Below, in pieces: positions 583-34,440 of a stretch of 35,802 nucleotides of DNA. The translations under genes were made by a program, and so were the position numbers. Under the pieces are notes generated by a model that ran no database searches, was not told the origin of the DNA, and saw only the letters and a program-made list of their open reading frames with translations. The DNA comes from a virus (lineage: Duplodnaviria; Heunggongvirae; Uroviricota; Caudoviricetes). Location: the IMG/VR virus record IMGVR_UViG_2711768064_000002. The stretch is one strand, 5' to 3'. Position 1 is the stretch's first letter; every line of letters starts with the position of its first letter.

Positions 583-1596
583 TTACTCTACTGTGGACAC
601 TGTGTGGACACTCTCGACCTCAGTACCACCTCTTAGCGGATTAAGAGAAATGGCGTCCTGAAGGTACTCTGGCGCAAAATGAGCGTAAACCATAGTTTGC
701 TCAATCCGCGTGTGACCTAGTATCCGTTGTAGCGTGATAATACTTCCTCCATTAATCATGAAATGAGTGGCAAAGCTGTGCCTTAGTGCATGTGTAGCTT
801 GCCCCATTGGCAAATCCGGTTTTATTGCTTTCATTGTTCGTCTGAAGCGAGGGTAATCAGCATCAGGGAATAAAAAACCTCGTTTGTTATCCGCGATCAT
901 TTTGGCAACAGCCTCTGAGATCGGGACGGTGCGTGGTTTGTTTGTTTTCGTTTTAACAAACGTGACGCGGTTATGGATGATATTTTCTGCTTTCAAACGA
1001 GCTGCTTCTCCCCAACGTGCTCCAGTACTCAGGCAAAGAATCGCAATCTTTTTGTTGTCGCCGTCAAGAGCAGCAAGCAGTAAGGCAATTTCTTCCTGCG
1101 TGAGATAGCCTGTGTCTGGTTTTTCCTCCTTAAGCCTTTTTGTCCCTCTGATAGGGTGCTCACCAAAGAATAACTCCGCTTCAATCAGGGCTGTAAACAT
1201 GCCGCTAATACATGTTAAATCACGATTGATACTCGAAGGTTTAATACCCTGACTTCTTCGGGTGGCGCAGTACTGGCTGATAAGCGATTTCGTAATTTGA
1301 AATGCGCATGGGTCATTCGTTATTTTTGTGAAGATTTCAATTTTCCCAAGATTAGATTTCCCATGCTCTTCGTGTTTACCCTTTAAATCCCACCAGATCT
1401 GTGTCAGCTCCGACAGACGTCGCTTGTCTGTTGGTTTTGATAGCCATTCTTTATTGTGGTGGTTGTACAACGTGTATTTCTCGAAAGCGACAGCTTCGCT
1501 TTTCTTATCAAACTTCCTACGGATGCGTTTTCCATTACGTCCAGTAGGGCGGATGTCCACTTCATATCGACCATCATCGAGTTTTTTGATTGCCAT
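583..1596 (-). CDS. int: Tyrosine integrase (P2 Int-like), 337 aa
   Basis: ORF adjacent to attL; C-terminal catalytic motifs ALRHSFATHF and GHTRIEQTMVYAH (R-HxxR-Y). Confidence 0.93.
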   Translation of the reverse strand: MAIKKLDDGRYEVDIRPTGRNGKRIRRKFDKKSEAVAFEKYTLYNHHNKEWLSKPTDKRRLSELTQIWWDLKGKHEEHGKSNLGKIEIFTKITNDPCAFQITKSLISQYCATRRSQGIKPSSINRDLTCISGMFTALIEAELFFGEHPIRGTKRLKEEKPDTGYLTQEEIALLLAALDGDNKKIAILCLSTGARWGEAARLKAENIIHNRVTFVKTKTNKPRTVPISEAVAKMIADNKRGFLFPDADYPRFRRTMKAIKPDLPMGQATHALRHSFATHFMINGGSIITLQRILGHTRIEQTMVYAHFAPEYLQDAISLNPLRGGTEVESVHTVSTVE

Positions 1597-3079: not shown

Positions 3080-3109
3080 GTAATTAATCAGAGTTTTTAA
3101 CGCACTTAA

Positions 3110-3367
3110 TTGTGCGGGGCTTCTTTTTGCCTGGAGAACGTCATGCATACAGTTTCCGAAAATCAGTGCGGTAAATACGCATTACTGCTGCAACAGGCCA
3201 GAACCGATGCACAGGCCGACGCAGCGACGCGCTTTTCTTCTCATCTTGACGCCATGATTCGCCACATCACAAAGGCGGAGTTATCCCGCGTGGAGATAGT
3301 CGAGCTGCTCAGTCAGGAGTCGGAAAAATTTCACAATATCGGATTGTCTCGCGGGGAGGTGCTTTGA
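3110..3367 (+). CDS. Early hypothetical protein (P2 orf80-like), 85 aa; alternative start at 3143
   Basis: ORF in early operon between B and A. Confidence 0.6.
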
Positions 3368-3669
3368 TGTCCTGTTCTCGTTCAGTTGTATTACTGAATA
3401 ACGCCTTAAAAATCACCGTTATGAAAAATGGCGATTTATCTCTTATTCAACTTGGTCTTGATAAAGAAAAACGCGAAATAACTGAGTCTGTTATCGCGAT
3501 TTATCAGAACGAATTAAATCTCCTGTCTGATGTGGTCAATTTACTTGTTAAACGCGCTGTATTTCACAAGCAAATCTCCTCCGTGGATGAACTGACGAAA
3601 TTAACGACAGAAATTGCCAGCTATTGCGCTGATGAATTTAAAAAACTTAACGACAAAAGGAGCTGGTAA
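3364..3669 (+). CDS. Early hypothetical protein (P2 orf81-like), 101 aa; alternative start at 3421
   Basis: ORF with overlapping stop/start coupling to neighbours. Confidence 0.6.
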
Positions 3670-3893
3670 TGCCGGACAACGTAGATTTTATTCAGGAACA
3701 ACAGGCTGAATTACTGGAGCGTCAGATTAACGCGGCAAGGGTAAAACATTGCGGTGCTTCTGCGCTGGTTTGCGAAGAGTGTGACGCGCCAATACCTGCT
3801 GCCCGTCGTGCGGCTTACCCGTCAGCCACGCGTTGTGTTTCCTGTCAGTCAGTCTTTGAAGCAAAAAACAAACATTACCGGAGAACGGCATGA
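3669..3893 (+). CDS. TraR/DksA-family C4 zinc-finger protein (P2 orf82-like), 74 aa
   Basis: CxxC...CxxC spacing (CGASALVCEECDAPI...RCVSCQ) typical of DksA/TraR zinc fingers. Confidence 0.7.
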   Translation: MPDNVDFIQEQQAELLERQINAARVKHCGASALVCEECDAPIPAARRAAYPSATRCVSCQSVFEAKNKHYRRTA

Positions 3894-4165
3894 GTATTCG
3901 TATTGAAATTGGCGAACGTTATGTCGTTACCAGTGACAGCTTTCAGTTTATTCTCCACGAGAAAAAGAGAGCGGAAAGCGGTAAAAACGCCGGTCAGGAA
4001 TGGCTGGCGGTGGTTGGTTATTACCCGAAATTAAGCCAGCTCGTTTCCGGCCTGATGCATCACGATATTCTGACCGGAAGCGCAAAGTCTTTTGCTGATT
4101 TAAACGCGCAGGTTGAGCAACTCAGCAAGCGTTGTTCAGAGGCTTTTGGCTCATATGGCCGTTAA
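3890..4165 (+). CDS. Early hypothetical protein (P2 orf83-like), 91 aa
   Basis: ORF directly upstream of and overlapping the A start. Confidence 0.6.
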   Translation: MSIRIEIGERYVVTSDSFQFILHEKKRAESGKNAGQEWLAVVGYYPKLSQLVSGLMHHDILTGSAKSFADLNAQVEQLSKRCSEAFGSYGR

Positions 4166-6431: not shown

Positions 6432-6690
6432 GTAAAAATGCAGCGTGATTTTATATGCCTTTGAATGGGTTATGCGAAGCGCCTCTAAGGCAGATGAGGA
6501 GCAATAGCATGCTGAAGTAGAAGGCTAAATTGTATTGAATCGCTAGCATGTAATTTAAAGCAGCTATTTGATTCGAGTCATAAAAGAGCATCTATTTCGG
6601 CTAATAAAACCATTGCGAGTGACCTTTTGTCGAAGCATAATTCATCTCGAGCGAAGTCTTGCTAGTCTTTCATCGGAATGATGACAGGCG

Positions 6691-6722
6691 CAAAAAAACC
6701 ACCCTGGCAGGTGGTTTTTTTG
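6691..6722. terminator. Bidirectional rho-independent terminator
   Basis: aaaaaaaccaccctggcaggtggttttttt: GC stem flanked by an A-run and a T-run, so it can terminate on either strand. Confidence 0.7.
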
Positions 6723-6733
6723 TTTGAAGCATA

Positions 6734-6847
6734 CTAAAGAATAATACTTACATGGATATTACTGACGTTTACTGACAAACCACTTGGACTACCATATGGA
6801 TAGCCAAAGAGGGCCAGAACGAGAATGCAGTAATAGCACTTCTTCAT
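6734..6847 (-). CDS. 37-aa hydrophobic small protein (MKKCYYCILVLALFGYPYGSPSGLSVNVSNIHVSIIL)
   Basis: Not in the ORF track (under 60 aa). Preceded by SD-like aggagg (rc of 6851..6856) and followed by the 6691..6722 terminator. Function unknown. Confidence 0.4.
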   Translation of the reverse strand: MKKCYYCILVLALFGYPYGSPSGLSVNVSNIHVSIIL

Positions 6848-7419
6848 ATCTCCTCCTGTAAGCAGAGGGCAATTTCCGCCGATATATGCGCTTCTAAGGC
6901 GGAGTTACTATTTAGCGAAGTCTTGCCCTGAAATAATGCTCTGTTTAAACGCAAAGTGATCTGGCATATCACCGAACAGAGAGCCTGAACAACACAACAT
7001 ATAGTATGTCGTTGTTTCTGGTTGCATTTTATGTTGTGTAATCCTGGTTTTGCATCAAGGATGTTTGAGCTTTTTTTGATATAGCTCAAAGTAAAAAGCA
7101 GAGACTACGGATGATAAGGTATTGAAAGCAATGTAAATTTTTTAAAGTTATTGGCGGCTAAAAAATGCACGGTTTCAATATGGTGGACTTAAATAAGCAA
7201 TTAAAAAAGTCATAAATATCACTAAAATCATGGTGTTACGTTTTTTTTGTGGGAGCTGCGGTGACGCTTAAGTTGATTTGTCATTAAATAAGCCGTGCAT
7301 GCAACAAGTGAATGTTTTTGCATGCGTCGGGGATGCCCGTTCCGGCTGCTTGCGGTCAGAGCTGGTGCGGATCCATAGTATCTATGCAACTGCATTAAAA
7401 CCGCCACATGAAGCGGGCG

Positions 7420-7438
7420 GGCGAGGCGGGGAAAGCAC
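7420..7438. other. cos cohesive-end site (GGCGAGGCGGGGAAAGCAC)
   Basis: Exact match to the 19-nt P2/186 cohesive-end sequence as I recall it; sits between A and Q as expected in the prophage. Confidence 0.8.
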
Positions 7439-7592
7439 TGCGCGCAAAATGTTCTTGAAATATTTGTGACATAAGCTAAGACACAAAATGATTGAAGGGC
7501 AGAGCAAATCCTACAGTCCTATGCTATTGTCTCATGTAATGCAGATAAGTTGAAAATTATCTTAAAATATAAGAGTAAAGACATTAAAAGGA

Positions 7593-9860
7593 TTGGTTAT
7601 GAATAATAACTCTAAGTTATTAAGCTCTATCTCGGTTGAATCTGATTTCGAGAACCTTATAAAACTATATGCAAATGAGTTATTTGGTGGTGAAACATAT
7701 CTGATCGGTGGTCCTTGGGATAATGGAAAGGATTTGGTAATAAAAAAGGGGAATAGAGAGTTAAAGCAAGCTGTACAAATATCTATTCAAGAGAAAAATA
7801 TTGAAAGTAAGATTGCTCAAGATATTAAAAAAGTGGCGAAATTGGTTGATGATCATTATTACCCGCCTGTATTATATTTTTTTTGGAGTCATTCAATATC
7901 TGAGCATTTATTGGATAAGATAAGAACAAATGCTCTTAAGGAAGATTTGATTAGATTGGAGTTTTATGATGCCAAACGGATCTCTCAAGATATTACAGAT
8001 AAATACCCAGGGTTATTGAATTACTTAATAAAAGATATACATAAGATAAGTTCTAATACTGAAGATGCAATTAACTTGCAACAAAGAGCATTTTATGAAT
8101 ATTTATTGTTAAGCAAAGATAGTGCTAATTTAAAAAATGAAATAATAAAAGCTAGTATTATGTCTAATTTATATGATGGCGGGAAGTCTGCTGATGATAT
8201 TCTAGAGAATCTAAAAGGTGTTAGTCTTACAAAACGTAGTTTACAGGGTAGACTGCAAAACCTAATTCATCAAAATAAAATTAGATTGAATGATGGTATA
8301 TATAGCCTGTCACCAGAGGAAATTAAAAAGCTTGAGAATATAAATCTCCGTGAAATTGTCAGAAAAGAAGAGTTGTTATCAGTAATAAATAATGAGTTGC
8401 CCAGAAATACAAGTAAGAATCTGGCTGTTCAAGTTGTTGATTTAATAATAAAGGCTTATGAAGAATCAATAAATGTCCAATTAACAGAAAGTAAATTTGA
8501 GCCTCCAAAATTACAGATATTCAAAACTATAGTACATAATTTAAAGGTGTTGATACGGCAGGAATATGATTTGGATGATGAGTCTTCGGATGCTTTAGCA
8601 AAAAAGCTAATGGAGTTGGCTGGTCAAAATGACTATTTATCCGAGCATTGCTCTGCTAAATTATGTGTGAATCTTTTAAGTGATCGGAAATTAGAGAAAT
8701 ATATTGAAAATAAAAATTTTTATATCTACTTTGATGCGCCTGTTCTTATTCCATATTTGATAACTCTTATGTTTGGAGATTTTGAGCTTTTTGATAAGTC
8801 GATTAAAAATATAAATTTACTGAGAGAGTGCATAAATCCCCTCAAAAATAAACATCTGAGAGTTTCTAATGAACATTTTGAAGAAACTGCAAGGCACTAC
8901 TCTGAAGCTGAAAAATTAAGTCAGTTTGTAACTGAAGATTTAATTAGTCAACTTGGTGAGTCGAAAAATGTATACTTTAATGTTTATATGCGGTGGAAAA
9001 ACAAACAGCCTAAACGTACAGATTTTTACGATTTTACTTATGCTTTTCTAGGGTTGGATAAAGATGATATTTATGCGGGGTATAAGCATGACACATTTGC
9101 GCAATGCATTCATAATTTACTAGCGTCAGCAAATATTGTTGTAATTGATAATAAAGACTCGGTGTCACAAGACTTTGTATTTAAAATAAAGCAAAAACTT
9201 AAAAGGGATTTGAATTCTTCACGTCCCGTTCGAGCCATAGAAAATGATGTTATATGTGCTGCAACTTTGAGTGATGAAACCCTACATCTTGATTCCAATG
9301 GTTACTTCAGTACTCCCATGCTAATAACACTTGATAGATCTCAATATCTATTGAGAAGCATAGTAAGAAATGAAAGGAGACATGCTGAATGGTTGGTTTA
9401 TACCCCTCAAAGAGCAATTGAACGTCTTTCCTTGGTGGGTTTAAAAATATCATCGGAATCGTTAAAGGATGGTGTTTTAGCAACCATATCAGAAGAATAT
9501 TTCTTTAAAGAAAGTTCCAGTAGTTTGATTGATACTTTGGCTATTATCATTGGAGATAATCAAGCAAGGCAAGGAGATGTTATTAGGCTTGCATCGCTTT
9601 TAAAAAGAAAGGTCAATGAGGAATCTATTGAGAATTCAGAAATTGATATTGAACACTATAATAACATTAGTTATGTGCTTCTTTTCATTCATCGTGAATT
9701 TAAATCTGAATTTTCAAATATAATAAAAATTTTTGCTGAGGATAGTAGGCGAGATAAACTGGTTGAAGTTTTGTTATCCACTATTCAAGGAGTTTTTGAT
9801 GAGAGTAAAAAGGAAATCTTGCGCTCAAATATAGGACGGTTGTTGGCTGAAATGGGATGA
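7593..9860 (+). CDS. Cargo protein of unknown function, 755 aa, AT-rich; possible N-terminal PD-(D/E)xK/Mrr-like nuclease fold
   Basis: Long uninterrupted ORF with Lys/Asn/Ile-rich composition unlike the GC-rich phage backbone. Motif weakly similar to Mrr-type nuclease cores: DNGKDLVIKKGNRELKQAVQISIQEK. Possible Rx4H at RNERRH. Confidence 0.85.
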   Translation: MVMNNNSKLLSSISVESDFENLIKLYANELFGGETYLIGGPWDNGKDLVIKKGNRELKQAVQISIQEKNIESKIAQDIKKVAKLVDDHYYPPVLYFFWSHSISEHLLDKIRTNALKEDLIRLEFYDAKRISQDITDKYPGLLNYLIKDIHKISSNTEDAINLQQRAFYEYLLLSKDSANLKNEIIKASIMSNLYDGGKSADDILENLKGVSLTKRSLQGRLQNLIHQNKIRLNDGIYSLSPEEIKKLENINLREIVRKEELLSVINNELPRNTSKNLAVQVVDLIIKAYEESINVQLTESKFEPPKLQIFKTIVHNLKVLIRQEYDLDDESSDALAKKLMELAGQNDYLSEHCSAKLCVNLLSDRKLEKYIENKNFYIYFDAPVLIPYLITLMFGDFELFDKSIKNINLLRECINPLKNKHLRVSNEHFEETARHYSEAEKLSQFVTEDLISQLGESKNVYFNVYMRWKNKQPKRTDFYDFTYAFLGLDKDDIYAGYKHDTFAQCIHNLLASANIVVIDNKDSVSQDFVFKIKQKLKRDLNSSRPVRAIENDVICAATLSDETLHLDSNGYFSTPMLITLDRSQYLLRSIVRNERRHAEWLVYTPQRAIERLSLVGLKISSESLKDGVLATISEEYFFKESSSSLIDTLAIIIGDNQARQGDVIRLASLLKRKVNEESIENSEIDIEHYNNISYVLLFIHREFKSEFSNIIKIFAEDSRRDKLVEVLLSTIQGVFDESKKEILRSNIGRLLAEMG

Positions 9861-9875
9861 TTTCTTGGTTATTGA

Positions 9876-9910
9876 ACGGCACTATGGTCGTTGCTTATAG
9901 TGCCGTTTTA
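9876..9910. terminator. Stem-loop terminator between cargo gene and Q 3' end
   Basis: aacggcactat..atagtgccgtt 11-bp stem followed by tttt; lies between convergent genes. Confidence 0.65.
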
Positions 9911-9951
9911 AGGTGTCGTGCCATTATGAATGGCATATCCGAGTTTATATA

Positions 9952-10986
9952 TTAGGTATCGCAAGTATCTAGTGAGTAGTTTTTAAAGCGGATGACCTCC
10001 TGACCGAGCCAGCCGTTTATCTCGCGGATCCTGTCCTGTAACGGGATAAGCTCATTGCGGACAAAGACCTTTGCCACTTTCTCAATATCGCCCAGTGACC
10101 CGACGTTCTCCGGCTTGCCGCCCATCAACTGAAAGGGGATGCGGTGCGCGTCCAGTAGGTCAGCGGCGCTGGCTTTTTTGATATTAAAAAAATCGTCCTT
10201 CGTTGCGACTTCACTGAGCGGGATAATTTTAATGCCGTCGGCTTTCCCCTGTGGGGCATAGAGAAACAGATTTTTAAAGTTGTTGCGGCCTTTCGACTTC
10301 ACCATGTTTTCGCGGAGCATTTCGATATCGTTGCGATCCTGCACGGCATCAGTGACGTACATGATGTATCCGGCATGTGCGCCGTTTTCGTAATACTTGC
10401 GGCGGAACAGCGTGGCCGACTCATTCAGCCAGGCAGAGTTAAGGGCGCTGAGATATTCCGGCAGGCCGTACAACTCCTGATTAATATCCGGCTCCAGCAG
10501 GTGAAACACGGAGCCGGGCGCGAAGGCTGTCGGTTCGTTGAAGGACGGCACCCACCAGTAAACATCCTCTTCCACCCCACGGCGGGTATATTTTGCCGGT
10601 GAGGTTTCCAGTCTGATGACCTTACCGGTGGTGCTGTAACGCTTTTCCAGAAACGCATTACCGAACACCAGAAAATCCAGCACAAAGCGGCTGAAATCCT
10701 GTTGTGAAAGCCACGGATGCGGGATAAATGTCGAGGCCAGAATATTACGTTTGACGTAAATCGGTGAGCTGTGATGTACGGCAGCACGCAGGCTTTTTGC
10801 CAGACCGGTAAAGCTGACCGGTGGCTCATACCATCTGCCGTTACTGATGCACTCGACGTAATCCAGAATGTCACGGCGGTCGAGTACCGGCACCGGCTCA
10901 CCAAAGGTGAATGCCTCCATTTTCGGGGCGCTGGCGGTGATTGTTTTTGCCGCAGGTTGCGGTGTTTTCCCTTTTTTCTTGCTCAT
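9952..10986 (-). CDS. Q: Portal protein Q, 344 aa
   Basis: Size identical to P2 Q; leftward late operon next to cos; start overlaps P stop. Confidence 0.92.
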   Translation of the reverse strand: MSKKKGKTPQPAAKTITASAPKMEAFTFGEPVPVLDRRDILDYVECISNGRWYEPPVSFTGLAKSLRAAVHHSSPIYVKRNILASTFIPHPWLSQQDFSRFVLDFLVFGNAFLEKRYSTTGKVIRLETSPAKYTRRGVEEDVYWWVPSFNEPTAFAPGSVFHLLEPDINQELYGLPEYLSALNSAWLNESATLFRRKYYENGAHAGYIMYVTDAVQDRNDIEMLRENMVKSKGRNNFKNLFLYAPQGKADGIKIIPLSEVATKDDFFNIKKASAADLLDAHRIPFQLMGGKPENVGSLGDIEKVAKVFVRNELIPLQDRIREINGWLGQEVIRFKNYSLDTCDT

Positions 10987-12758
10987 CAGTAAAACTCCAG
11001 AATGGTGGATGTCAGCGGGGTGCTGATACCGGCGGTGAGTGGCTCATTTAACAGGGCGTGCATGGTCGCCCAGGCGAGGTCGGCGTGGCTGGCTTCCTCG
11101 CTGCGGCTGGCCTCATAGGTGGCGCTGCGTCCGCTGCTGGTCATGGTCTTGCGGATAGCCATAAACGAGCTGGTGATGTCGGTGGCGCTGACGTCGTATT
11201 CCAGACAGCCACGGCGGATAACGTCTTTTGCCTTGAGCACCATTGCGGTTTTCATTTCCGGCGTGTAGCGGATGTCGCGCGCGGCAGGATAGAACGAGCG
11301 CACGAGCTGGAACACGCCGACACCGAGGCCGGTGGCATCAATACCGATGTATTCGACGTTGTATTTTTCGGTGAGTTTGCGGATGGATTCCGCCTGGGTG
11401 GCAAAGTCCATGCCTTTCCACTGGTGACGCTCAAGTATTCTGAATTTGCCACCGGCAACCACCGGCGGTGCCAGTACCACGCATCCGGCGCTGTCGCCAC
11501 GGTGTGACGGGTCGTAACCAATCCAGACCGGGCGTGAGCCGAACGGATTGGCGGCAAACGGCGCATAGTCTTCCCATTCTTCCAGCGTGTCGACCATGCA
11601 GCGTTGCAACTCCTCGAACGGGAACACCGACGCCTTGTCGTCAACAAATTCACACATGAACAGGTTTTTAAAATCGTCGGCGCTGTTTTCGCGTTTGAGC
11701 TGCTCAATGTCGAACAGCGTGCAGCCGCCTTTCAGGGCGTCCTCAATGGTGACAATCTGCCGCCACTGGCCGTCCGCACAGAGAAGACCTCCGGCAAGTG
11801 CGTTATGACTGACGTCGATTTCCACGCGTTCAGCGGCGCTGGCGCGTCCCCGGTTAAACAGTTCACCCGACCAGAACGGGTAGGCGTCGTGCGCCAGCGT
11901 GGACGGGGTGGAGAAATAGGTCGAACGCAGGTGACTCTGTGAGGCCATACCTGATGCCACCTTACGCAGTACCTGAAAATTCGGGATCCAGAAAATCTCG
12001 TCGACGTACAGGTCGCCGTTATGGCTCTGCGCGGTGTTGGAGTTGGTGCCGAGAAAAATCAGTTTTGCGCCGTTATTGCCCAGGACAATTGGGTCACCGG
12101 TCAGGTCAACGTCAACCAGACGGGCAAAGGCGATGATGTATTCGCGGAACACATACGCCTGCGTTTTACTGGCCGACAGAAAAATCTGGTTATGGCCGGT
12201 TTTCAGGGCGCGCAGCAGCGCCTCGCGGGAAAAATAAAACGTTGCGCCAATCTGGCGGGATTTCAGGATATCGCGGATGCGGTGCTCAAGCCCGGCGCGA
12301 TACCAGTGCAACTGATATTCGAAAGACTGCTCAAAGAAAATCTGCTCCAGCTTTTCGATGGCTTCGTCGCTGAAAAAATTCTTTTTCGGTTTGCGGCGCC
12401 CGCCTTTGTTGCGGTTAGCGACGTTCGGATTAAGGTCTGCCTCGTTGCCGGTCTGACTGTAGCGGTTGACCCGCGCCAGCCGTTCAATCTGGCGTCCCAG
12501 CAGGTCAATTTCCTTGAAGTCACCGCCGGTTTTCTGCGGTTTGATGATGAGCTGGGTCAGCCGCGCTTCCAGACTCATTTCGACACGGCTGATGGGGGCA
12601 ACGCTGTCCCAGCCGTCGCGCTGTTTCCAGCTCTGCACCGTCGGGCGTTTCATCTGCAACATGGCGGCAATCTGCGGCACGGAAAACCCCTGCCAGTACA
12701 GCAGCGCCGCCTGACGACGCGGGTCGTGTAAAAGAGTGGTGTCTGTGGTGATGGTCAT
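10986..12758 (-). CDS. P: Terminase large subunit P (ATPase), 590 aa; ORF extends to 12788
   Basis: Start at MTITTDTTLLHDPRR gives 590 aa as in P2 P; Walker-like ATPase context; translationally coupled to Q. Confidence 0.92.
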   Translation of the reverse strand: MTITTDTTLLHDPRRQAALLYWQGFSVPQIAAMLQMKRPTVQSWKQRDGWDSVAPISRVEMSLEARLTQLIIKPQKTGGDFKEIDLLGRQIERLARVNRYSQTGNEADLNPNVANRNKGGRRKPKKNFFSDEAIEKLEQIFFEQSFEYQLHWYRAGLEHRIRDILKSRQIGATFYFSREALLRALKTGHNQIFLSASKTQAYVFREYIIAFARLVDVDLTGDPIVLGNNGAKLIFLGTNSNTAQSHNGDLYVDEIFWIPNFQVLRKVASGMASQSHLRSTYFSTPSTLAHDAYPFWSGELFNRGRASAAERVEIDVSHNALAGGLLCADGQWRQIVTIEDALKGGCTLFDIEQLKRENSADDFKNLFMCEFVDDKASVFPFEELQRCMVDTLEEWEDYAPFAANPFGSRPVWIGYDPSHRGDSAGCVVLAPPVVAGGKFRILERHQWKGMDFATQAESIRKLTEKYNVEYIGIDATGLGVGVFQLVRSFYPAARDIRYTPEMKTAMVLKAKDVIRRGCLEYDVSATDITSSFMAIRKTMTSSGRSATYEASRSEEASHADLAWATMHALLNEPLTAGISTPLTSTILEFY

Positions 12759-18257: not shown

Positions 18258-18687
18258 TGCCGTCACGGTGCTGAAAACCAGTCCCGATATGCTGCGGATA
18301 TTCGTGGATAACGGGAGTATTGCCTCCACACTGGCGGCGTCGTTGTCATTCGAAAAGCGTTACACGCTCAATGTCATTGTGACCGACTTTACCGGTGATT
18401 TTGACCTGCTCATCGTGCCGGTGCTGGCGTGGCTGCGGGAAAATCAGCCCGACATCATGACCACCGACGAAGGTCAGAAAAAGGGCTTCACGTTTTATGC
18501 AGACATCAACAATGACAGCAGCTTTGATATCAGCATCAGCCTGATGCTGACCGAGCGCACGCTGGTCAGTGAGGTGGACGGCGCACTGCATGTGAAGAAT
18601 ATCCCGGAACCCCCGCCGCCGGAGCCGGTCACCCGCCCGATGGAGCTGTATATCAATGGCGAACTGGTGAGCAAGTGGGATGAATGA
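18220..18687 (+). CDS. R: Tail completion protein R, 155 aa
   Basis: Size and position as P2 R. Confidence 0.88.
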   Translation: MLKPDSLRRALTDAVTVLKTSPDMLRIFVDNGSIASTLAASLSFEKRYTLNVIVTDFTGDFDLLIVPVLAWLRENQPDIMTTDEGQKKGFTFYADINNDSSFDISISLMLTERTLVSEVDGALHVKNIPEPPPPEPVTRPMELYINGELVSKWDE

Positions 18688-19132
18688 GTTTAAGCGTTTT
18701 GAAGACCGGCTGACCGGACTGATTGAGTCGCTGTCACCGTCAGGGCGTCGGCGACTGAGTGCCGAACTGGCGAAACGTCTGCGGCAGAGTCAGCAGCGTC
18801 GGGTGATGGCTCAGAAAGCCCCGGACGGCACACCCTACGCGCCACGCCAGCAGCAGAGCGCCAGAAAAAAGACTGGTCGTGTTAAGCGAAAAATGTTTGC
18901 GAAACTTATCACCAGTCGTTTTTTGCATATCCGCGCCAGCCCGGAACAGGCATCAATGGAGTTTTACGGCGGGAAGTCGCCGAAAATTGCCAGTGTGCAT
19001 CAGTTCGGTCTGTCGGAAGAAAACCGAAAAGACGGTAAGAAAATTGATTATCCGGCGCGTCCTCTGCTCGGCTTTACCGGTGAGGATGTGCAGATGATTG
19101 AAGAGATTATCCTGGCTCACCTGAATCGTTAG
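18680..19132 (+). CDS. S: Tail completion protein S, 150 aa
   Basis: Size and position as P2 S. Confidence 0.88.
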   Translation: MNEFKRFEDRLTGLIESLSPSGRRRLSAELAKRLRQSQQRRVMAQKAPDGTPYAPRQQQSARKKTGRVKRKMFAKLITSRFLHIRASPEQASMEFYGGKSPKIASVHQFGLSEENRKDGKKIDYPARPLLGFTGEDVQMIEEIILAHLNR

Positions 19133-19207
19133 CTTTAATCATCTGAGAATATAAGATAGAAATCAATTGATTAGCATAATTTATTTTGAATTTTAATGTT
19201 AATAAAT

Positions 19208-19232
19208 AAAAGGCCAGTTATTGGCCTTTTAT
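19208..19232. terminator. Bidirectional rho-independent terminator
   Basis: aaaaggccagttattggcctttt: stem ggcca/tggcc flanked by A- and T-runs, between convergent S and the antisense cargo gene. Confidence 0.7.
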
Positions 19233-19234
19233 CA

Positions 19235-20308
19235 TTACTTTCCATTTTTTAATGAATTGATTAACGATGCTATTTGCTCAATGCCATCAAATGTAGATGG
19301 TATCTTATCATCGGATAGCATGATGTTTGAAAATACTACGTCTTCGAATTTTGAAAGCGCTTCCGGATTGTTTTTCCTTATCTCTGAGGAATAGTCGCTA
19401 TAACTCTGAATGAACTGACAAAGGCTCTTTCTGAGTTCTATTTGCATAATCTGAGTTCGTAACGATATATGATTTAGCAGTACAACTCTAAAGTAATACA
19501 TGAAAATCAATGTAACTGATGCAAAAGGTAGTGCTGACATAAAATATGTGGCAGCATTTGTCGTTTCGAGAGTTGGTAATTTATGCATTCCATAGTATAT
19601 CAGCGGGGAGGGAATGATTATAGCCAAGATGATAAGAATTATTCTTGATAGCATGATTTCACTTTCTTTCTTTTTGCCAAGTGAATTAAAGCCTTCAAAC
19701 AATCCAACAAAATTAAATGCGACCTCATACCCTTTTAATGACTCTTTAATTGACTCTATTTTGGCATGTTGCTCCTTTAAGAAGGAGTCGCACTTTTCGA
19801 AAAATTGACGCCCTTCGTTTAAACTATCAATGTATTTTTTATATGTGTCAACATTGCTGGAGCTTAAAACTTCTTTAACCATTGCTAATGGCAGTTCTCT
19901 AAGAGAAAAGTCTATCTGTGCTCTGCTCCGCTCATCGAATTCATTATAGTTATACAGAGCAAAATCCTTGATGGTTCTTAGTGGTGAAAAGTGAGACTCT
20001 ATTTCCGGAGAGAGAATGCTTGGTTCAATGATAAATCTAAAAAAGCAAGTAAATATAAGGTTGATGCTGTTGTTATCTTCTCCCTTCTCTCTTAAGAAAC
20101 TTTTAAAGGTGTCGCCAATCATAGCAATGTTGTACTGGGATTTTTTGTCCCAATCTTCAGGGTTTTCGGAAATGAAGTTTATTGCTTGAGCAATTATTTT
20201 GTTTCTGTTTGATTCAAAGTTTGTGCTGGGAGTCAGCGTGTTCAAAAAGACCAGATAATCTTTGAACAATTCTTTCATTGTTTCTGACGAGAAAAAGTAA
20301 GTACTCAT
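19235..20308 (-). CDS. AT-rich cargo membrane protein with two predicted TM helices, about 357 aa; ORF opens at 20404 (389 aa)
   Basis: Soluble N-terminal region then hydrophobic helices IMLSRIILIILAIIIPSPLIYYGM and FMSALPFASVTLIFMYYFRVVLL. Start at MSTYFF (20308) preferred because the 20404 start overlaps the V start. Confidence 0.8.
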   Translation of the reverse strand: MSTYFFSSETMKELFKDYLVFLNTLTPSTNFESNRNKIIAQAINFISENPEDWDKKSQYNIAMIGDTFKSFLREKGEDNNSINLIFTCFFRFIIEPSILSPEIESHFSPLRTIKDFALYNYNEFDERSRAQIDFSLRELPLAMVKEVLSSSNVDTYKKYIDSLNEGRQFFEKCDSFLKEQHAKIESIKESLKGYEVAFNFVGLFEGFNSLGKKKESEIMLSRIILIILAIIIPSPLIYYGMHKLPTLETTNAATYFMSALPFASVTLIFMYYFRVVLLNHISLRTQIMQIELRKSLCQFIQSYSDYSSEIRKNNPEALSKFEDVVFSNIMLSDDKIPSTFDGIEQIASLINSLKNGK

Positions 20309-20394
20309 AATGGATTTTGTTGTCCCTTGTTGTTCTGTGCACCAGAAATCATGGTGTGATTTACTTCGAGATAGTACAGAATCATTATTATCGA
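20309..20394. promoter_or_regulatory. Late promoter region upstream of V (PV); likely also holds the cargo gene promoter
   Basis: Intergenic between divergent cargo gene and V; TGT-rich element ttgttgtcccttgttgttctgtgcacc. Inferred from P2 organisation. Confidence 0.45.
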
Positions 20395-21024
20395 ATGAAT
20401 GCACAATACAATGAAATTCTTCGCTTTATACGCAATATGATTCGCACTGGCATTATCGTCGAAACCGACCTTAATGCCGGTCGCTGCCGTGTGCAGACCG
20501 GCGGCATGTGCACCGACTGGCTTCAGTGGCTGACCCATCGCGCCGGGCGTTCGCGCACATGGTGGGCACCTTCCGTGGGGGAACAGGTGCTGATTCTGGC
20601 CGTGGGTGGTGAACTCGACACGGCGTTCGTTCTGCCGGGGATTTATTCCGGCGATAACCCCGCGCCGTCTGCGTCGGCGGATGCCCTGCATATCCGTTTC
20701 CCTGACGGGGCGGTGATTGAATATGAACCCGAAACCAGTGCACTCATGGTAAGCGGAATTAAAACGGCCAGCGTGACGGCTTCTGATTCTGTTACTGCCA
20801 CGGTGCCGGTGGTCATGGTGAAAGCATCAACCCGCATCACCCTGGACACACCGGAGGTGGTCTGCACCAACAGGCTGATTACCGGCACGCTGGAAGTGCA
20901 GAAGGGCGGGACGATGCGCGGCAACATTGAACACACCGGCGGTGAACTCTCATCAAACGGTAAGGTACTGCATACCCATAAACACCCCGGCGACAGCGGC
21001 GGCACAACCGGGAGTCCTCTATGA
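20395..21024 (+). CDS. V: Baseplate spike/assembly protein V, about 209 aa; ORF opens at 20317
   Basis: NMIRTGIIVETDLNAGRCRVQTGGMCTDWLQWL recognised as P2 V. Confidence 0.9.
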   Translation: MNAQYNEILRFIRNMIRTGIIVETDLNAGRCRVQTGGMCTDWLQWLTHRAGRSRTWWAPSVGEQVLILAVGGELDTAFVLPGIYSGDNPAPSASADALHIRFPDGAVIEYEPETSALMVSGIKTASVTASDSVTATVPVVMVKASTRITLDTPEVVCTNRLITGTLEVQKGGTMRGNIEHTGGELSSNGKVLHTHKHPGDSGGTTGSPL

Positions 21025-24863: not shown

Positions 24864-25391
24864 ATGCAGCATTTAAAAAATATTACTGCGGGTAATCCAA
24901 AAACTGTTGCCCAATATCAACTGACAAAAAATTTTGATGTTATCTGGTTATGGTCCGAAGAGGGAAAAAACTGGTATGAGGAAGTAAGTAATTTTCAGGA
25001 AGACACGATAAAGATTGTTTACGACGAGAATAATATAATTTTCGGCATCACCAGAGATGCTTCAACGCTTAACCCTGAAGGTTTCAGCGTTGTCGAGGTT
25101 CCTGATATTACCTCCAACCGACGTGCTGATGACTCAGGTAAATGGATGTTTAAGGATGGTGCCGTGATTAAGCGGATTTATACGGCAGATGAACAGGAGC
25201 AACAGGCAGAATCACAAAAGGCAGCTTTACTTTCCGAAGCTGAATCCGTGATTTTGCCGCTGGAACGCGCTGTCAGGCTGAATATGGCGACGGATGAGGA
25301 ACGCAGCCGACTGGAAGCATGGGAACGCTACAGCGTTCTGGTCAGTCGTGTGGATCCTGCAAATCCCGAATGGCCGGAAATGCCGCAATAA
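24864..25391 (+). CDS. G: Tail fiber assembly chaperone G, 175 aa
   Basis: Follows H; size as P2 G. Confidence 0.88.
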
Positions 25392-25668
25392 GTTGTATGA
25401 TCTCTGGTGTGAGCTTACATATCTATAGCACAGAGTAAAGCCTAATCTGACAGTCCGCTATGTGCCAATAGCAGACATCCACACAATTATGTAAAATAGG
25501 CTAGTGAGTCAGCATTCATGTAGTTCAGATCATCTATAGCTGAAATCACGATCGCTTAACAGTGATTCACTCATAACTGCTAGCGAGCAATGTTCTTGTT
25601 TGAACCTCAAGTTGAAACCACAAAATCGAAAGGTTAAATAATCGATTATCCAAATAGAAGGCAATTCA

Positions 25669-27108
25669 ATGGGAAATCACGATTTTATTAAATATATTAT
25701 ATTATTTGGCTTGTCTGGGATAATGTTGGCTATGCTAGTGCTCTTTATTTCCTCTGTAGCATATTATTTTTTCACCCATAATAAAGGAGTTCTTCAGTAT
25801 ATAATTAAAACTATTTCCATAGGCCTTGTAACTATTCCAGTCGCAATAATACTAATCGTTGCACTCGTCCATTATGTTGTCTGGCAAAAAGGGATTTCAA
25901 CGGCATGGCGTTTTATATTCCACTCGACTAAAACAACAACCGTGAATGATATTGCTAATGCTGAATCAGAAGATGTTATTGTTCACCTTGTTCATGGAAC
26001 ATTCGAGACGAATGCATCTTGGACACAACCTGAGTCAAAAATGTGCAAATCAATTAACTCAAGGAATCCCAATATTGGTATATCTCGATTTAAATGGGAT
26101 GGCAAAAACTCTGCATCCTCTCGTAAACAAGCGGCATATCAATTAGGAATGCATATTGATAACTCTCCTGCAAAATACAATTATATTATTGCACATAGCC
26201 ATGGGGCAGCTATTGTAAGAGAAATGTCTTATTTACGAAGTGATATTGCAAAAAAAATTCAAGGCGTATGTCTTTTGTCACCACCGTTCATCTTTCGACG
26301 TAGGATAAAAAGAACGTCAGGTGCTTTAATTAATCTTATTGATATTAGCGGAACTTTGGCCATTCAATTGTTACTTGCAGTATTTTTTGTACCTTTGAAT
26401 CTATATAATATTAATTATGCAGCAGTAATTTTTTTTGTTTCAATATTTGCAGAAATTATAATCTCCAAAAAATATAAAAAAGAATTTTTGCAGGAAGTTG
26501 AGAGTGGCGAGCACTGTGAAGCGGTTGATTTTAGGAATGTTGAAATTTATCACGCAATTGGTGATGAAGCCGATTCAGGCCTAAGATTTGTAAGTTCACT
26601 TCACGAAGGATGTTTTGCAATTCTTTCCCAGCTAAAAAAAGCTCAAGTAAGTCATAAAAAGCTAACACATTGGTCAGCAGTTTTAAGCTACCTATTTTAT
26701 ATTTCCATGAGTGTATTAATATGGTTCTTCTATCCTGAAGAAAAATCATGGATTATAGTATTATTAGTAAGCTTTGTATTAACTTCTATTTCTCACATTT
26801 GGCAAAGGTTGAAACCATCAAAGGATGTTCCTCATGTTTTACTTATTGCAGCAATACCAGTTGCGATTTTTTCATTTTGGTTGGCTGTAGCTAAGGCCAT
26901 AGCTTATGGAGATTTGCGATTAATATTTTGCCCGGAAGTTTTTATTGCATCATCTGAAACTCCAGCTGGAGATCATAAAGTTATTAAATTTGCTCCACAG
27001 AATGATGGTATATTAATACACTCAACACACTCGCATCCGGAGGCTATAATTAATGTTTCTGAATGGTTATATTGCTCTGAGAATAAAAGGGTAAATGGTG
27101 AATCATAG
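25669..27108 (+). CDS. AT-rich cargo polytopic membrane protein with serine-hydrolase-like motifs, 479 aa
   Basis: N-terminal TM helices, then VIVHLVHGTFE (HG oxyanion-like) and IIAHSHGAAIV (GxSxG-like elbow), further TM segments, C-terminal ILIHSTHSH. Occupies the Z/fun position between G and FI. Confidence 0.85.
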   Translation: MGNHDFIKYIILFGLSGIMLAMLVLFISSVAYYFFTHNKGVLQYIIKTISIGLVTIPVAIILIVALVHYVVWQKGISTAWRFIFHSTKTTTVNDIANAESEDVIVHLVHGTFETNASWTQPESKMCKSINSRNPNIGISRFKWDGKNSASSRKQAAYQLGMHIDNSPAKYNYIIAHSHGAAIVREMSYLRSDIAKKIQGVCLLSPPFIFRRRIKRTSGALINLIDISGTLAIQLLLAVFFVPLNLYNINYAAVIFFVSIFAEIIISKKYKKEFLQEVESGEHCEAVDFRNVEIYHAIGDEADSGLRFVSSLHEGCFAILSQLKKAQVSHKKLTHWSAVLSYLFYISMSVLIWFFYPEEKSWIIVLLVSFVLTSISHIWQRLKPSKDVPHVLLIAAIPVAIFSFWLAVAKAIAYGDLRLIFCPEVFIASSETPAGDHKVIKFAPQNDGILIHSTHSHPEAIINVSEWLYCSENKRVNGES

Positions 27109-27441
27109 ATTAATATAACCACCATAAATTAATTTGTAATATACTTCCCTGCTAAATTCGCAGGGGAGTATAAAAATATACTAGCTCAGTGGAGTCTTGT
27201 GCTGAGTTAGTACATGTTAACAAGATATTTATTCACCACTAAATAATTAGCTAGAACAATAAGAATAATTTTGGGCAGTAAAGACAGGATGTAAACTACA
27301 CTTATTCCAGTATGTTGGTTATCGTAGTTATATATGATGAGCTCTAAAGTCCGCTTCTCGCTCAAAGCAGACTGTCAGATTTGATAGCGTTTTGGCTATG
27401 TAAATTGTCAGTCGGGAAATAAGTGAGTACAAATCATGACA

Positions 27442-27470
27442 GGCGGGCGGATTGTCCGCCTTTTCTTTAT
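27442..27470 (+). terminator. Rho-independent terminator downstream of cargo gene
   Basis: ggcgga-ttg-tccgcc hairpin followed by ttttcttt. Confidence 0.6.
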
Positions 27471-27565
27471 CTGTTGTTTCATCCACTGACCAGCCAGGTC
27501 AAATAGCGTCTCATGCTCTGCACAACAGAAAATACCACTCACCCATTAACCACGGAGTTAAACGG
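27471..27565 (+). promoter_or_regulatory. Late promoter region upstream of FI (PF)
   Basis: tgttg ... caaca inverted element (27471..27525) upstream of FI RBS ggag; inferred from P2 late promoter architecture. Confidence 0.45.
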
Positions 27566-28756
27566 ATGAGTGACTATCATCACGGCGTGCAGGTGCTGGA
27601 GATTAACGACGGCACCCGCGTCATTTCCACCGTATCCACTGCCATTGTCGGCATGGTCTGCACGGCCAGCGATGCGGATGCGGAAACCTTCCCCCTCAAT
27701 AAACCGGTGCTGATTACCAATGTGCAGAGTGCAATTGCAAAGGCCGGTAAAAAAGGCACGCTGGCGGCATCGTTGCAGGCCATCGCCGACCAGTCAAAAC
27801 CGGTCACCGTTGTTGTGCGTGTGGAAGACGGCACCGGCGACGACGAGGAAACGAAACTCGCGCAGACCGTTTCCAATATCATCGGCACCACCGACGAAAA
27901 CGGTCAGTACACCGGACTGAAAGCCCTGCTGGCGGCGGAGTCGGTAACTGGTGTTAAACCGCGTATTCTCGGCGTGCCGGGACTGGACACCAAAGAGGTG
28001 GCTGTTGCACTGGCATCAGTCTGTCAGAAGCTGCGCGCTTTCGGGTATATCAGCGCATGGGGCTGTAAAACCATTTCCGAGGTGAAAGCCTACCGCCAGA
28101 ATTTCAGCCAGCGTGAACTGATGGTTATCTGGCCGGATTTCCTCGCATGGGATACGGTCACCAGTACCACCGCCACCGCGTATGCCACCGCCCGTGCGCT
28201 GGGTCTGCGTGCCAGAATCGACCAGGAGCAGGGCTGGCATAAAACGCTGTCCAACGTCGGGGTAAACGGTGTTACCGGCATCAGTGCCTCTGTATTCTGG
28301 GATTTGCAGGAGTCCGGCACCGATGCTGACCTGTTGAATGAGTCAGGTGTCACAACGCTGATTCGCCGCGACGGTTTCCGCTTCTGGGGTAACCGTACCT
28401 GCTCTGATGACCCGCTGTTCCTCTTTGAAAACTACACCCGCACCGCGCAGGTGCTGGCCGATACGATGGCTGAGGCGCACATGTGGGCGGTGGACAAGCC
28501 CATCACCGCAACGCTGATTCGCGACATCGTTGACGGCATCAATGCCAAATTCCGTGAGCTGAAAACAAACGGCTATATCGTGGATGGCTCATGCTGGTTC
28601 AGCGAAGAATCCAACGATGCGGAAACCCTCAAGGCCGGAAAACTGTATATCGACTACGACTATACACCGGTGCCTCCTCTCGAAAACCTGACCCTGCGCC
28701 AGCGTATTACCGATAAATACCTGGCAAATCTGGTCACCTCGGTTAACAGCAATTAA
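27566..28756 (+). CDS. FI: Tail sheath protein FI, 396 aa; ORF opens at 27452
   Basis: Start MSDYHHGVQVLEIN with RBS; 396 aa as P2 FI. Confidence 0.92.
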   Translation: MSDYHHGVQVLEINDGTRVISTVSTAIVGMVCTASDADAETFPLNKPVLITNVQSAIAKAGKKGTLAASLQAIADQSKPVTVVVRVEDGTGDDEETKLAQTVSNIIGTTDENGQYTGLKALLAAESVTGVKPRILGVPGLDTKEVAVALASVCQKLRAFGYISAWGCKTISEVKAYRQNFSQRELMVIWPDFLAWDTVTSTTATAYATARALGLRARIDQEQGWHKTLSNVGVNGVTGISASVFWDLQESGTDADLLNESGVTTLIRRDGFRFWGNRTCSDDPLFLFENYTRTAQVLADTMAEAHMWAVDKPITATLIRDIVDGINAKFRELKTNGYIVDGSCWFSEESNDAETLKAGKLYIDYDYTPVPPLENLTLRQRITDKYLANLVTSVNSN

Positions 28757-34268: not shown

Positions 34269-34296
34269 TAAAAAATAAGCCCGTGTAAGGGAGATT
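34269..34296. repeat. attR core (taaaaaataAgcccgtgtaagggagatt)
   Basis: Direct repeat of attL; coincides with the 3' end of the sRNA gene. Confidence 0.85.
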
Positions 34297-34356
34297 ACAC
34301 AGGCTAAGGAGGTGGTTCCTGGTACAGCTAGCATTTTATGGGTTATGTTTTTCAGC
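34270..34356 (-). ncRNA. cyaR: CyaR (RyeE) small regulatory RNA, 87 nt
   Basis: Minus strand reads gctgaaaaacataacccataaaatgctagctgtaccaggaaccacctccttagcctgtgtaatctcccttacacgggcttatttttt, matching CyaR as I recall it, including the terminator hairpin and U-tail. Confidence 0.8.
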
Positions 34357-34440
34357 GAAACGGATGATAACCTTAATAAATGCAGCTGTATGTGATCGGT
34401 TTCTAAGAATTTTCCATCCGGGAAAAATAATCGAAATTAA

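Follow-up and report, generated by a model that had tools for sequence, protein, structure and literature searches.

The window, by which we mean the whole stretch of 35,802 nucleotides that was analysed, carries a self-contained accessory gene (a "moron", here called the cargo gene) in the orf30 slot of a P2-like prophage, between the late genes S and V (Table 1). The annotation of S and V was taken from a 99.7%-identical E. coli RefSeq locus, and by sequence both genes belong to a P2-like prophage. The first-pass annotation had described a minus-strand, AT-rich reading frame at this site, standing as a single antisense gene in the position of P2 orf30, and both descriptions hold. The frame is present (19235..20404, 389 aa if read from a GTG), GC content is 0.34-0.37 over approximately 19150-20350 (35% in the cargo gene) against 0.54 in S and 0.58 in V, and the layout matches that of P2, where the order is O-operon terminator, antisense orf30, Ogr activator site and V. 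The lysis cassette (Y-K-lysABC) lies no more than 1.5 kb from the cargo gene, which is outside it.

Table 1. Features of the S-V region, in window coordinates.
Feature	Position	Strand	Evidence
gpS-like tail completion/virion morphogenesis gene (flank)	18680..19132	+	RefSeq annotation of E. coli locus; PF05069 in homologous loci
AT-rich exchangeable module, including the first 12 codons of V	19133..20430	.	megablast and GC profile
Bidirectional intrinsic-terminator-like hairpin common to S (O operon) and cargo transcripts	19206..19232	both	stem-loop and folding energy
Cargo gene: 357 codons (19238..20308) and TAA stop (19235..19237)	19235..20308	-	ORF list, homolog lengths, conserved N-terminus, dN/dS, phrog_9373
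Residues 1-150: variable N-terminal all-helical cytoplasmic domain, putative sensor	19859..20308	-	
Residues 151-197: long connecting helix	19718..19858	-	
Residues 198-243: invariant FNFVGL..GF..LG..K motif into TM helix 1 (~221-241)	19580..19717	-	alignment, hydropathy
Residues 256-279: TM helix 2	19472..19543	-	hydropathy, alignment, column entropy 1.31 bits
Residues 280-357: most conserved part	19238..19471	-	column entropy 0.94-1.11 bits (lowest), invariant columns, dN/dS
5' extension of the maximal GTG frame, most likely non-coding leader and promoter DNA	20309..20404	-	extension in no homolog
Divergent intergenic region, cargo start to V start	20309..20394	.	P2 Ogr-site comparison, other P2-like loci, allele conservation
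gpV baseplate spike gene, opens the V late operon (flank)	20395..21024	+	RefSeq annotation; P2 gpV match

Comparison with homologs places the true start of the cargo gene at the ATG at 20308, since the homologs are 353-358 aa long and share an N-terminal M-x-x-x-F-F motif (F6 invariant) that aligns from this codon. The 389-aa GTG form is unsupported: its extra segment is absent from the homologs examined, and the PHROG profile alignment begins only at residue 44 of that form. The 347-aa call made by PGAP is probably too short. Starting at 20308, the cargo gene leaves 86 bp of divergent intergenic DNA and does not overlap V, so the suggestion that its 5' end might run into the V start falls away. 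The longest stop-free stretch is 385 codons; shuffling the same 1262 nt 5000 times never produced one longer than 179, and the probability of meeting no stop in 357 codons is approximately 1.6e-12. Measured against an 81%-identical allele, the dN/dS of the cargo gene is 0.23, which marks it as protein-coding and under purifying selection.

Both ends of the gene carry candidate regulatory elements. The predicted hairpin 2 nt past the cargo stop codon and 74 nt past the S stop has an 11-bp perfect stem and a 5-nt loop, with an A-run on one side and a T-run on the other, and folds with -14.3 kcal/mol on the plus strand (z -3.7) and -16.2 kcal/mol on the minus strand (z -4.7); the P2 annotation puts the O-operon terminator at the equivalent position. 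The bidirectional terminator proposed earlier is thus borne out as a predicted structure. At the other end, a degenerate activator-site sequence resembling that of P2 PV lies at ~20328..20358, as judged against the annotated P2 Ogr site and other P2-like loci, and no exact TGT-N12-ACA Ogr box was found upstream of V. A consensus scan of the minus strand upstream of 20308 gave no strong sigma-70 match; weak candidates, such as TACTAT at 20375..20370, could be picked out by eye only, and the spacing of the Shine-Dalgarno match is poor. Activator and promoter roles for these elements are suggested by such comparisons, and by the conservation of the region, which is approximately 90% identical between two alleles with 81% identity in their coding sequence, the upstream 160 nt being conserved. 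Identity to P2 and its relatives by megablast returns only from 20431, so that the swapped AT-rich module reaches inside V; the first-pass annotation had confined the cargo promoter to 20309..20404, but the promoter may extend beyond that interval.

P2 is said to carry horizontally acquired genes in three regions, the S-V (orf30) interval being one of them (PMC3091744), and in this respect the slot was already known as a site of horizontal transfer. When S, cargo gene and V were used together as a query, 1583 of 5426 E. coli genomes matched, nearly all of the matches in sampled rows covering S and V, and only 60 genomes carried the cargo gene, leaving 96% of the matching genomes without it. 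In other genomes the slot is either empty or holds a P2 orf30-type, a phrog_10503-type or a RelA/SpoT-family gene. The last of these is a toxSAS-like gene of 359 aa (PADLOC PDC-S33) that lies antisense between S and V in E. coli S88; its phage matches are all below 60% identity, and phage SJ46 was absent from the 15 records listed out of 30 phage records that matched it. Divergent alleles of the cargo gene occur on one phage backbone, with S 97% identical at the nucleotide level and the cargo gene 81%. P2-like phages of Citrobacter, Kosakonia and Yersinia have homologs of 37-50% identity in this slot, and further slot homologs were found in phages of Erwinia, Pectobacterium and Pantoea. They stay at 30-37% GC in phages whose hosts differ in GC content, deviating from the flanking phage genes there too. 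The cargo gene therefore stands as foreign DNA, as first described, but not as a recent one-off insertion, given the homologs in the same slot in several genera. Deviant GC, a predicted terminator of its own and presence/absence polymorphism among otherwise similar phages are the marks by which we call it a moron.

Of the databases searched, only PHROG gave a family: the cargo protein matches phrog_9373 (E=9.3e-134, profile positions 21-387 of 388), a phage protein family without functional annotation. Clustered at 50% identity, the family comprises 929 clusters. Remote homology and structure searches, which the first-pass annotation had proposed, added no strong structural neighbour or analogue. 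The cargo protein has no significant Pfam or NCBIfam match, no match in the PDB by sequence or by profile, and none among the defence-protein families of PADLOC-DB v2.0.0 at E<=1; ten divergent family members carry no Pfam domain, and all 42 aligned relatives, scanned against Pfam at E<=1, show no consistent family. Homology to a virion or structural protein, which the same annotation had named as evidence that would overturn its reading, was looked for in the family, PHROG and structure searches and not found. No curated database currently annotates the function of this family, and the literature, including work on the orf30 slot and screens of integrons for defence genes, yielded no experimental test of it.

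The family is widespread outside phages, including as solitary chromosomal genes. In Vibrio cholerae the homolog is a superintegron cassette, a single open reading frame bounded by attC sites: the locus has more than 20 VCR/attC repeats, and the gene (7001-8071) sits between those at 6846-6940 and 8073-8155, among ParE/Phd and TacA-type toxin-antitoxin cassettes. A Klebsiella phage-plasmid carries a homolog antisense among replication genes, one on an integrative element has a putative AbiC next to it, another adjoins a filamentous prophage and has PLDc_2 and AAA_15/21 genes close by, and an Aeromonas homolog comes after the suc operon. Across 39 loci we found no conserved or recurrent neighbour or partner gene. 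At loci outside mobile elements, housekeeping genes make up most of the neighbourhood, and only a minority of loci have defence genes (scattered dGTPase, JukA, HsdS and PDC matches). We therefore reject strong defence-island enrichment there and consider guilt by association weak in that setting. Integron cassettes and P2 hotspots are themselves documented reservoirs of defence genes (10.1101/2024.07.02.601686; PMC9122126).

At the level of the protein, the soluble N-terminal domain followed by two transmembrane helices that had been described is there: hydropathy gives two hydrophobic segments (residues ~221-241 and 256-279), the AlphaFold model is helical over both, and the N-terminal domain has a confident predicted fold. 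That description was incomplete, however, as the approximately 80 residues after the second transmembrane helix are the best conserved part. Invariant positions in the alignment include N199, F200, L203, G206, F207 and K214 leading into the first transmembrane helix (hydropathy peak 222-235) and P261, Y271 and F273 in the second, with R274 nearly so. There follows a polar-striped cytoplasmic helix (N279, S282, Q286, Q289, R293) and then the KFE..FSNI and K-IPSTFDG motifs, the C-terminal motif being kept across phyla. The predicted periplasmic loop, by contrast, is variable (approximately 12 residues, entropy 3.39 bits). Within the family, identity is 53% in the C-terminal membrane half and 28% in the N-terminal half. 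The same asymmetry separates residues 196-357 (dN 0.056, dN/dS 0.12) from residues 1-150 (dN 0.254, dN/dS 0.35). As an average, the value of 0.35 indicates relaxed purifying selection, with no demonstrable positive selection. A variable N half joined to a conserved C half is the usual pattern of a sensor fused to an effector.

One full-length homolog, A0ABY7ARW8 (35% identical to the cargo protein), bears the UniRef name "SLATT-domain protein", which raised the question of whether the family belongs there. Proteins with SLATT domains (SLATT_1-6, DUF4231) share with the cargo protein a hairpin of two transmembrane helices and, after it, a conserved helical region in the cytoplasm, a combination predicted in SLATT proteins to act as a pore-forming suicide effector (PMC9226505). 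A0ABY7ARW8 is nevertheless a hypothetical protein at NCBI with no Pfam match on record, and all other relatives are unnamed. No SLATT family matched the cargo protein at E<=1 in Pfam or NCBIfam, and none is among the 25 Pfam families listed for the 42 relatives scanned. The V. cholerae homolog has a true SLATT_5 cassette 2 kb away, and an alignment was built from that cassette for a profile-profile comparison covering SLATT_5; against these 32 proteins (PF18160), hhalign gave the cargo family a probability of 0.4% (E=0.17). SLATT proteins are, moreover, approximately 190-230 aa long and usually paired with a nucleotide synthetase or reverse transcriptase, whereas the cargo protein stands alone and carries 195 additional residues at its N-terminus. 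In a set of 125 neighbours, the 25 commonest Pfam families include no partner of the SMODS/CD-NTase, SLOG or reverse transcriptase kinds, and the P2 slot has no room for a partner gene. Membership of SLATT is thus unsupported.

We favour, at a probability of roughly 0.45, reading the cargo gene as a single-protein anti-phage system in which a variable sensor is joined to a conserved membrane effector. Several lines of evidence carry this reading: the gene is real and constrained (by dN/dS and by open reading frame length, P ~1e-12); it is an independent unit, antisense to both late operons, with a terminator and base composition of its own; it occupies a recognised exchange slot with divergent alleles on one backbone; it occurs as a single gene without a partner on several unrelated kinds of mobile element; and its two halves evolve differently. 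Counting against it are the lack of homology to validated defence proteins and of a structural analogue, the weak guilt by association outside mobile elements, the relaxed purifying selection (as opposed to positive selection) on the N-terminal domain, and the weak promoter and Shine-Dalgarno signals. In addition, many prophage morons with transmembrane helices serve roles other than defence. As a working description, the product is probably an anti-phage suicide or exclusion protein. It would form a helical hairpin in the inner membrane with both termini in the cytoplasm, the N-terminal helical domain holding the C-terminal module (interfacial FNFVGL helix, two transmembrane helices and the polar-striped helix ending in IPSTFDG) inactive until a phage-derived cue arrives. 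Once triggered, this module would oligomerise and permeabilise or depolarise the membrane, and the damage would abort the infection or block it early. More tentatively, the family may be a new and widespread one-protein form of abortive infection, with a fast-evolving helical sensor of novel fold fused to a two-TM, polar-striped pore module, possibly a distant, partner-independent offshoot of SLATT, that has spread as one gene across the mobile elements of several phyla.

Sequence alone does not separate abortive infection from superinfection exclusion, in which the inner-membrane hairpin would stop DNA entry or an early membrane step and the cell would survive. T4 Imm, P22 SieA and HK97 gp15 are exclusion proteins of such a kind, and a prophage-encoded, membrane-anchored, partner-free single gene at a position conserved in P2-like phages of many genera would suit the same role. 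However, with large conserved cytoplasmic parts and only the short variable loop outside, the protein offers little surface to an incoming phage, and the homologs that sit in integron cassettes or alone in chromosomes need no resident phage. We consider exclusion unlikely; context and domain-level conservation make the abortive-infection idea of the first-pass annotation more plausible. A benefit to the host other than defence (envelope stress tolerance, signalling or transport regulation, acquired by lysogenic conversion), or a neutral passenger, would agree with the housekeeping neighbourhoods outside phages, such as that of the Aeromonas copy, and with the missing tie to any defence family. 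Such explanations are doubtful, in that no metabolic or regulatory partner is conserved and that a patchy distribution tied to mobile elements, lasting AT-richness and allele swapping in a phage hotspot are typical of genes in conflict.

The toxin-antitoxin cassettes around the V. cholerae copy, and the gain that carrier elements would draw from being stabilised, bring to mind a selfish role, either as a fused, toxin-antitoxin-like addiction module keeping prophages and integron arrays stable or as an inhibitor of a membrane-based host defence. We hold this to be quite improbable: the product is one protein, in which nothing points to an unstable antitoxin part, and its absence from so many matching E. 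coli genomes shows that prophage maintenance does not need it. Least of all do we expect a part in the phage life cycle, be it in lysis timing (holin- or antiholin-like) or in tail or baseplate assembly. The lysis cassette is close by, and two transmembrane helices with both ends inside are the topology of class II holins. Those proteins are small, however (~70-150 aa), and the cargo protein, at 357 aa, is several times holin size. It matches no holin family, is transcribed against the late operons behind a predicted terminator, and is missing from P2 and from most of the prophages related to it, in many of which the slot is empty; homologs occur outside phages, and homology to structural proteins is lacking. 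Identity as a class II holin was rejected on its size, antisense orientation, position outside the cassette and lack of a family match.

Should the cargo protein prove to be an anti-phage effector, the orf30 slot, the third classical variable region of P2, would join old/tin and Z/fun as a defence hotspot, and the defence repertoire would gain a compact, partner-free membrane system whose sensor and effector are separable. At least 929 sequence clusters that now lack curated annotation would gain a function. Passing as it does between P2-like phages, phage-plasmids and integron cassettes, the family is also a useful marker for the shuttling of single-gene accessory functions among element types. 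If it has no role in defence, the cargo gene simply adds to the uncharacterised prophage morons, in a slot where foreign genes are known to gather.

Among known systems, P2 Orf30 is comparable in place: it too is antisense and AT-rich in the same slot, flanked likewise by the O-operon terminator and the V late promoter, and a reading of its translated sequence also predicts a membrane protein. It differs in length (261 aa against 357), family (phrog_2407 against phrog_9373) and transmembrane layout, and the two are not homologous by sequence (best BLASTP E=1.6 over 16 residues). Transmembrane effectors are the recognised means of cell suicide in CBASS, retron, RexAB and SLATT-type systems (PMC9122126; PMC9226505), and those of abortive infection are helical inner-membrane proteins, believed to kill by depolarisation, that are found on prophages and in defence hotspots (PMC9122126; 10.1101/2024.07.02.601686). 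The effectors λ RexB and the two-TM proteins of retrons and CBASS, with which the cargo protein has no detected homology, rely on a sensor encoded by another gene (RexA, a reverse transcriptase or a cyclase), whereas the cargo gene has no such partner. CapRel(SJ46) is a fused toxin-antitoxin whose toxic part, it is proposed, is restrained by a variable part until a phage protein is sensed (PMC9712102). The effector there is a tRNA-pyrophosphorylating enzyme where the cargo protein has a membrane hairpin, and the sequences are unrelated; the two are alike in being single polypeptides borne on prophages, and a similar autoinhibition may, hypothetically, operate in the cargo protein.

The window is occupied by a P2-like prophage with an integrase gene at one end and the CyaR sRNA gene at the other; no tRNA gene was found in the window. 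The antisense, AT-rich ORF that the first-pass annotation had placed between S and V is present there, in a block of 34-37% GC flanked by S at 54% and V at 58%. The longest stop-free stretch at this position spans 385 codons, whereas none among 5000 shuffles exceeded 179, and the chance of 357 codons passing without a stop is ~1.6e-12; the ORF is not due to chance. Comparison with an allele 81% identical in DNA gives a dN/dS of 0.23, from which we conclude that this cargo gene is under purifying selection. Homologs are 353-358 aa long and their N-termini (M-x-x-x-F-F, F6 being invariant) line up with the ATG at position 20308; therefore, the product has 357 aa, and the 389-aa form with a GTG start is an artefact of choosing the longest ORF. 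The RefSeq call for the E. coli gene in NZ_AP022482.1, 347 aa from an internal Met (WP_249962873.1; window 20278 rather than 20308), probably starts ten codons too late, as family conservation supports the 357-aa start. Other database entries hold 389-aa or truncated versions. With the start at 20308, the 5' overlap with V suggested earlier disappears, leaving a divergent intergenic region between the two genes.

The bidirectional terminator proposed to be common to the cargo gene and S is matched by a predicted hairpin flanked by an A-run and, on the opposite side, a T-run; its folding energy is -14.3 kcal/mol for the plus strand and -16.2 kcal/mol for the minus strand, well under shuffled controls. 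P2 shows the same arrangement: an annotated O-operon terminator is followed by orf30, which is nonessential and antisense, then by an Ogr activator site and by V. The window has TTGTTGTTCT...AATCATGG at about 20328..20358, which is similar to the activator site at the V promoter in P2 and in a Pectobacterium relative and departs from an exact TGT-N12-ACA. No convincing sigma-70 promoter was found for the cargo gene, all candidates being weak (e.g. TACTAT at 20375..20370). Two alleles with 81% identity in their coding regions share ~90% of the 160 nt upstream, which suggests functional signals in this stretch. Sequence identity to P2 is not regained before 20431, and therefore the AT-rich exchangeable module takes in the first 12 codons of V (20395..20430), so that the N-terminus of V varies among phages with the cargo carried; the cargo promoter could lie within these codons. 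In a 75%-identical allele (L064/L065, named E. albertii), an IS200/IS605-type Y1 transposase gene lies between cargo and S (3657-4091), and the sequence past the cargo stop is unlike the hairpin of the window.

Features of the prophage (nucleotide positions in the window) and of the AlphaFold2 model of the cargo product (residues)
Feature	Position	Strand	Remarks
Integrase gene	583..1596		left end of prophage
Long ORF of old/tin island	7593..9860	+	755 aa from TTG
S, tail-completion gene	18680..19132	+	left flank of cargo gene
Hairpin, perfect 11-bp stem, 5-nt loop	19206..19232		2 nt past cargo stop, 74 nt past S stop
Cargo ORF, maximal form	19235..20404	-	between S and V
Divergent intergenic region	20309..20394		86 bp, between cargo start and V start
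V, baseplate gene	20395..21024	+	right flank of cargo gene
ORF of Z/fun island	25669..27108	+	479 aa
CyaR sRNA gene	34273..34358	-	marks right-hand junction
Compact N-terminal domain	residues 1-150		predicted
Long helix	residues 152-197		predicted
TM hairpin	after long helix		predicted
TM2 extended as cytoplasmic helix	to residue 313		predicted

Hydropathy confirms two transmembrane segments in the product, at residues about 221-241 and 256-279, joined by a short variable loop. Since Lys/Arg-rich sequence borders this hairpin on both sides, both termini should, by the positive-inside rule, be cytoplasmic. AlphaFold2, run with 42 homologs, gave an all-helical model with a mean pLDDT of 79, in which the last 40 residues have low confidence, yet are among the best conserved; the N-terminal domain modelled alone reached a pLDDT of 93 and a pTM of 0.89. 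Neither model had a specific structural neighbour, the full-length one matching generic hairpins and coiled coils only and nothing in BFVD. Searches of Pfam, NCBIfam, PADLOC and the PDB gave nothing significant, and the sole family match was PHROG 9373, of unknown function.

Across the 42 homologs, mean pairwise identity is 28% in the N-terminal half versus 53% in the C-terminal half, and a close allele pair behaves likewise (dN 0.254 and dN/dS 0.35 for residues 1-150, versus 0.056 and 0.12 for residues 196-357). In more distant members tblastn recognises the C-terminal module only, with protein length unchanged. Invariant positions comprise the segment FNFVGL..GF..LG..K ahead of TM1, P261, Y271 and F273 in TM2, a polar stripe with 3-4-3-4 spacing on the helix past TM2 (N279, S282, Q286, Q289, R293), and the motifs KFE..FSNI and K-IPSTFDG.

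Clustered at 50% identity (E<=1e-3), the family amounts to 929 clusters; of the 150 matches listed, almost every one spans the full-length profile. The full gene is found in 60 of 5426 complete E. coli genomes, every time between S and V; an S-cargo-V query matched 1583 E. coli genomes, nearly all of those sampled taking in S and V. Where sampled genomes lacked the cargo gene, the slot was empty or held a P2 orf30-type gene or a phrog_10503 gene. Homologs occupy the same slot, antisense, in P2-like phages of Citrobacter, Kosakonia and Yersinia (37-50% identical) and of Erwinia, Pectobacterium and Pantoea (34-38%, tblastn), and the viable Yersinia phages vB_YenM_31.17 and 06.16-2 also have them. 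Among three phages compared, the cargo has diverged further than V, W or R, its GC still being 30-37%, and in one allele pair DNA identity is 97% for S and 81% for the cargo; on these identities, the cargo is evidently swapped within a conserved phage backbone. The slot of a sister prophage in E. coli S88 (NC_011742.1 2184402-2185481) has an antisense 359-aa RelA/SpoT-family gene, annotated as GTP pyrophosphokinase and matching the PADLOC candidate PDC-S33, which looks like a fused toxSAS-type gene; the phage matches listed for it are mycobacteriophage and Vibrio phage genes ~30% identical.

Other variable regions were also occupied. Yersinia enterocolitica prophages (L008-L010) have an extra insertion separating V from W (2500-5230), in which a RelB/YafQ-type toxin-antitoxin pair lies along with several small ORFs; a second variable slot therefore adjoins the first. 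The window prophage has a second AT-rich island (6600..10000, GC 0.29-0.40) separating replication gene A from portal gene Q, which is the classical old/tin position, and a third (25200..27600, GC 0.33-0.41) separating the sheath gene from the tail-fibre genes, at the Z/fun position. The long ORF of each gave no match in Pfam, PADLOC, PHROGs or the PDB; that of the old/tin island is another uncharacterised hotspot cargo. In this prophage, each of the three variable regions classically known from P2 contains unannotated genes.

Outside P2-like phages, the Vibrio cholerae homolog (within CP080463.1 179126-194196) is a superintegron cassette bounded by attC repeats, in an array of 20+ VCR/attC repeats, among toxin-antitoxin (ParE/Phd, TacA-type) and acetyltransferase cassettes; a true SLATT_5 protein lies in a separate cassette 2 kb away. 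A V. parahaemolyticus homolog (L060/L061) adjoins a filamentous prophage (Rep_trans, Zot) and is followed (8087-12177) by a 143-aa ORF and a PLDc_2 protein, and in L060 also by an AAA_15/AAA_21 ATPase; this region may be a small defence island at a filamentous-phage integration site. Klebsiella phage pJN2-26 (roughly 110 kb) has a homolog antisense among replication genes, and three similar records match too; another homolog neighbours a putative AbiC within an integrative element. Solitary homologs among housekeeping genes occur in Aeromonas and in other bacterial groups, among them Campylobacterota (Sulfuricurvum), Geobacteraceae, Nitrospirales and Bacteroidetes. No neighbour family recurred across the loci compared, and a minority of those outside mobile elements had defence neighbours (dGTPase, JukA, HsdS, PDC candidates).

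The cargo gene is self-contained and present on several unrelated kinds of mobile element. Horizontally acquired genes have already been described from the S-V slot (PMC3091744), which also houses the toxSAS-like gene of S88. Reservoirs of anti-phage systems are documented in P2 hotspots and in the cassettes of chromosomal integrons (PMC9122126; 10.1101/2024.07.02.601686; 10.64898/2026.02.27.708500), and the usual suicide effectors of such systems are transmembrane proteins (PMC9122126, PMC9226505). The pairing of a variable N-terminal half with a membrane module that is conserved fits a fused sensor-effector. For these reasons, we favour, at a probability of about 45%, a single-protein anti-phage function acting on the inner membrane, which would involve a sensing step, autoinhibition within the protein, oligomerisation and pore formation.

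The protein might instead mediate superinfection exclusion without cell death, have an accessory role outside defence, or play a selfish or counter-defence part. A role in the phage life cycle is the least likely explanation, because the gene runs antisense, has a terminator insulating it, is missing from most relatives and is present outside phages as well. The slot, and the general kind of gene (a prophage moron coding for a membrane protein), are already known; we found no experimental test of this protein family in the literature. We regard the family as a well-defined, widespread and testable candidate, one of many such.

UniRef calls one full-length homolog a SLATT-domain protein. SLATT membership is unsupported for the window protein: it matched none of the SLATT models of Pfam and NCBIfam, SLATT is absent from the families listed for the 42 relatives, and profile-profile comparison with 32 true SLATT_5 proteins, the one SLATT subfamily covered, gave a probability of 0.4%, aligning TM2 and the next helix and nothing else. 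The topology is like that of a SLATT-type effector, but SLATT systems are typified by partner genes, and the cargo gene stands without them. P2 Orf30, although unrelated in sequence, has both slot and orientation in common with the cargo gene.
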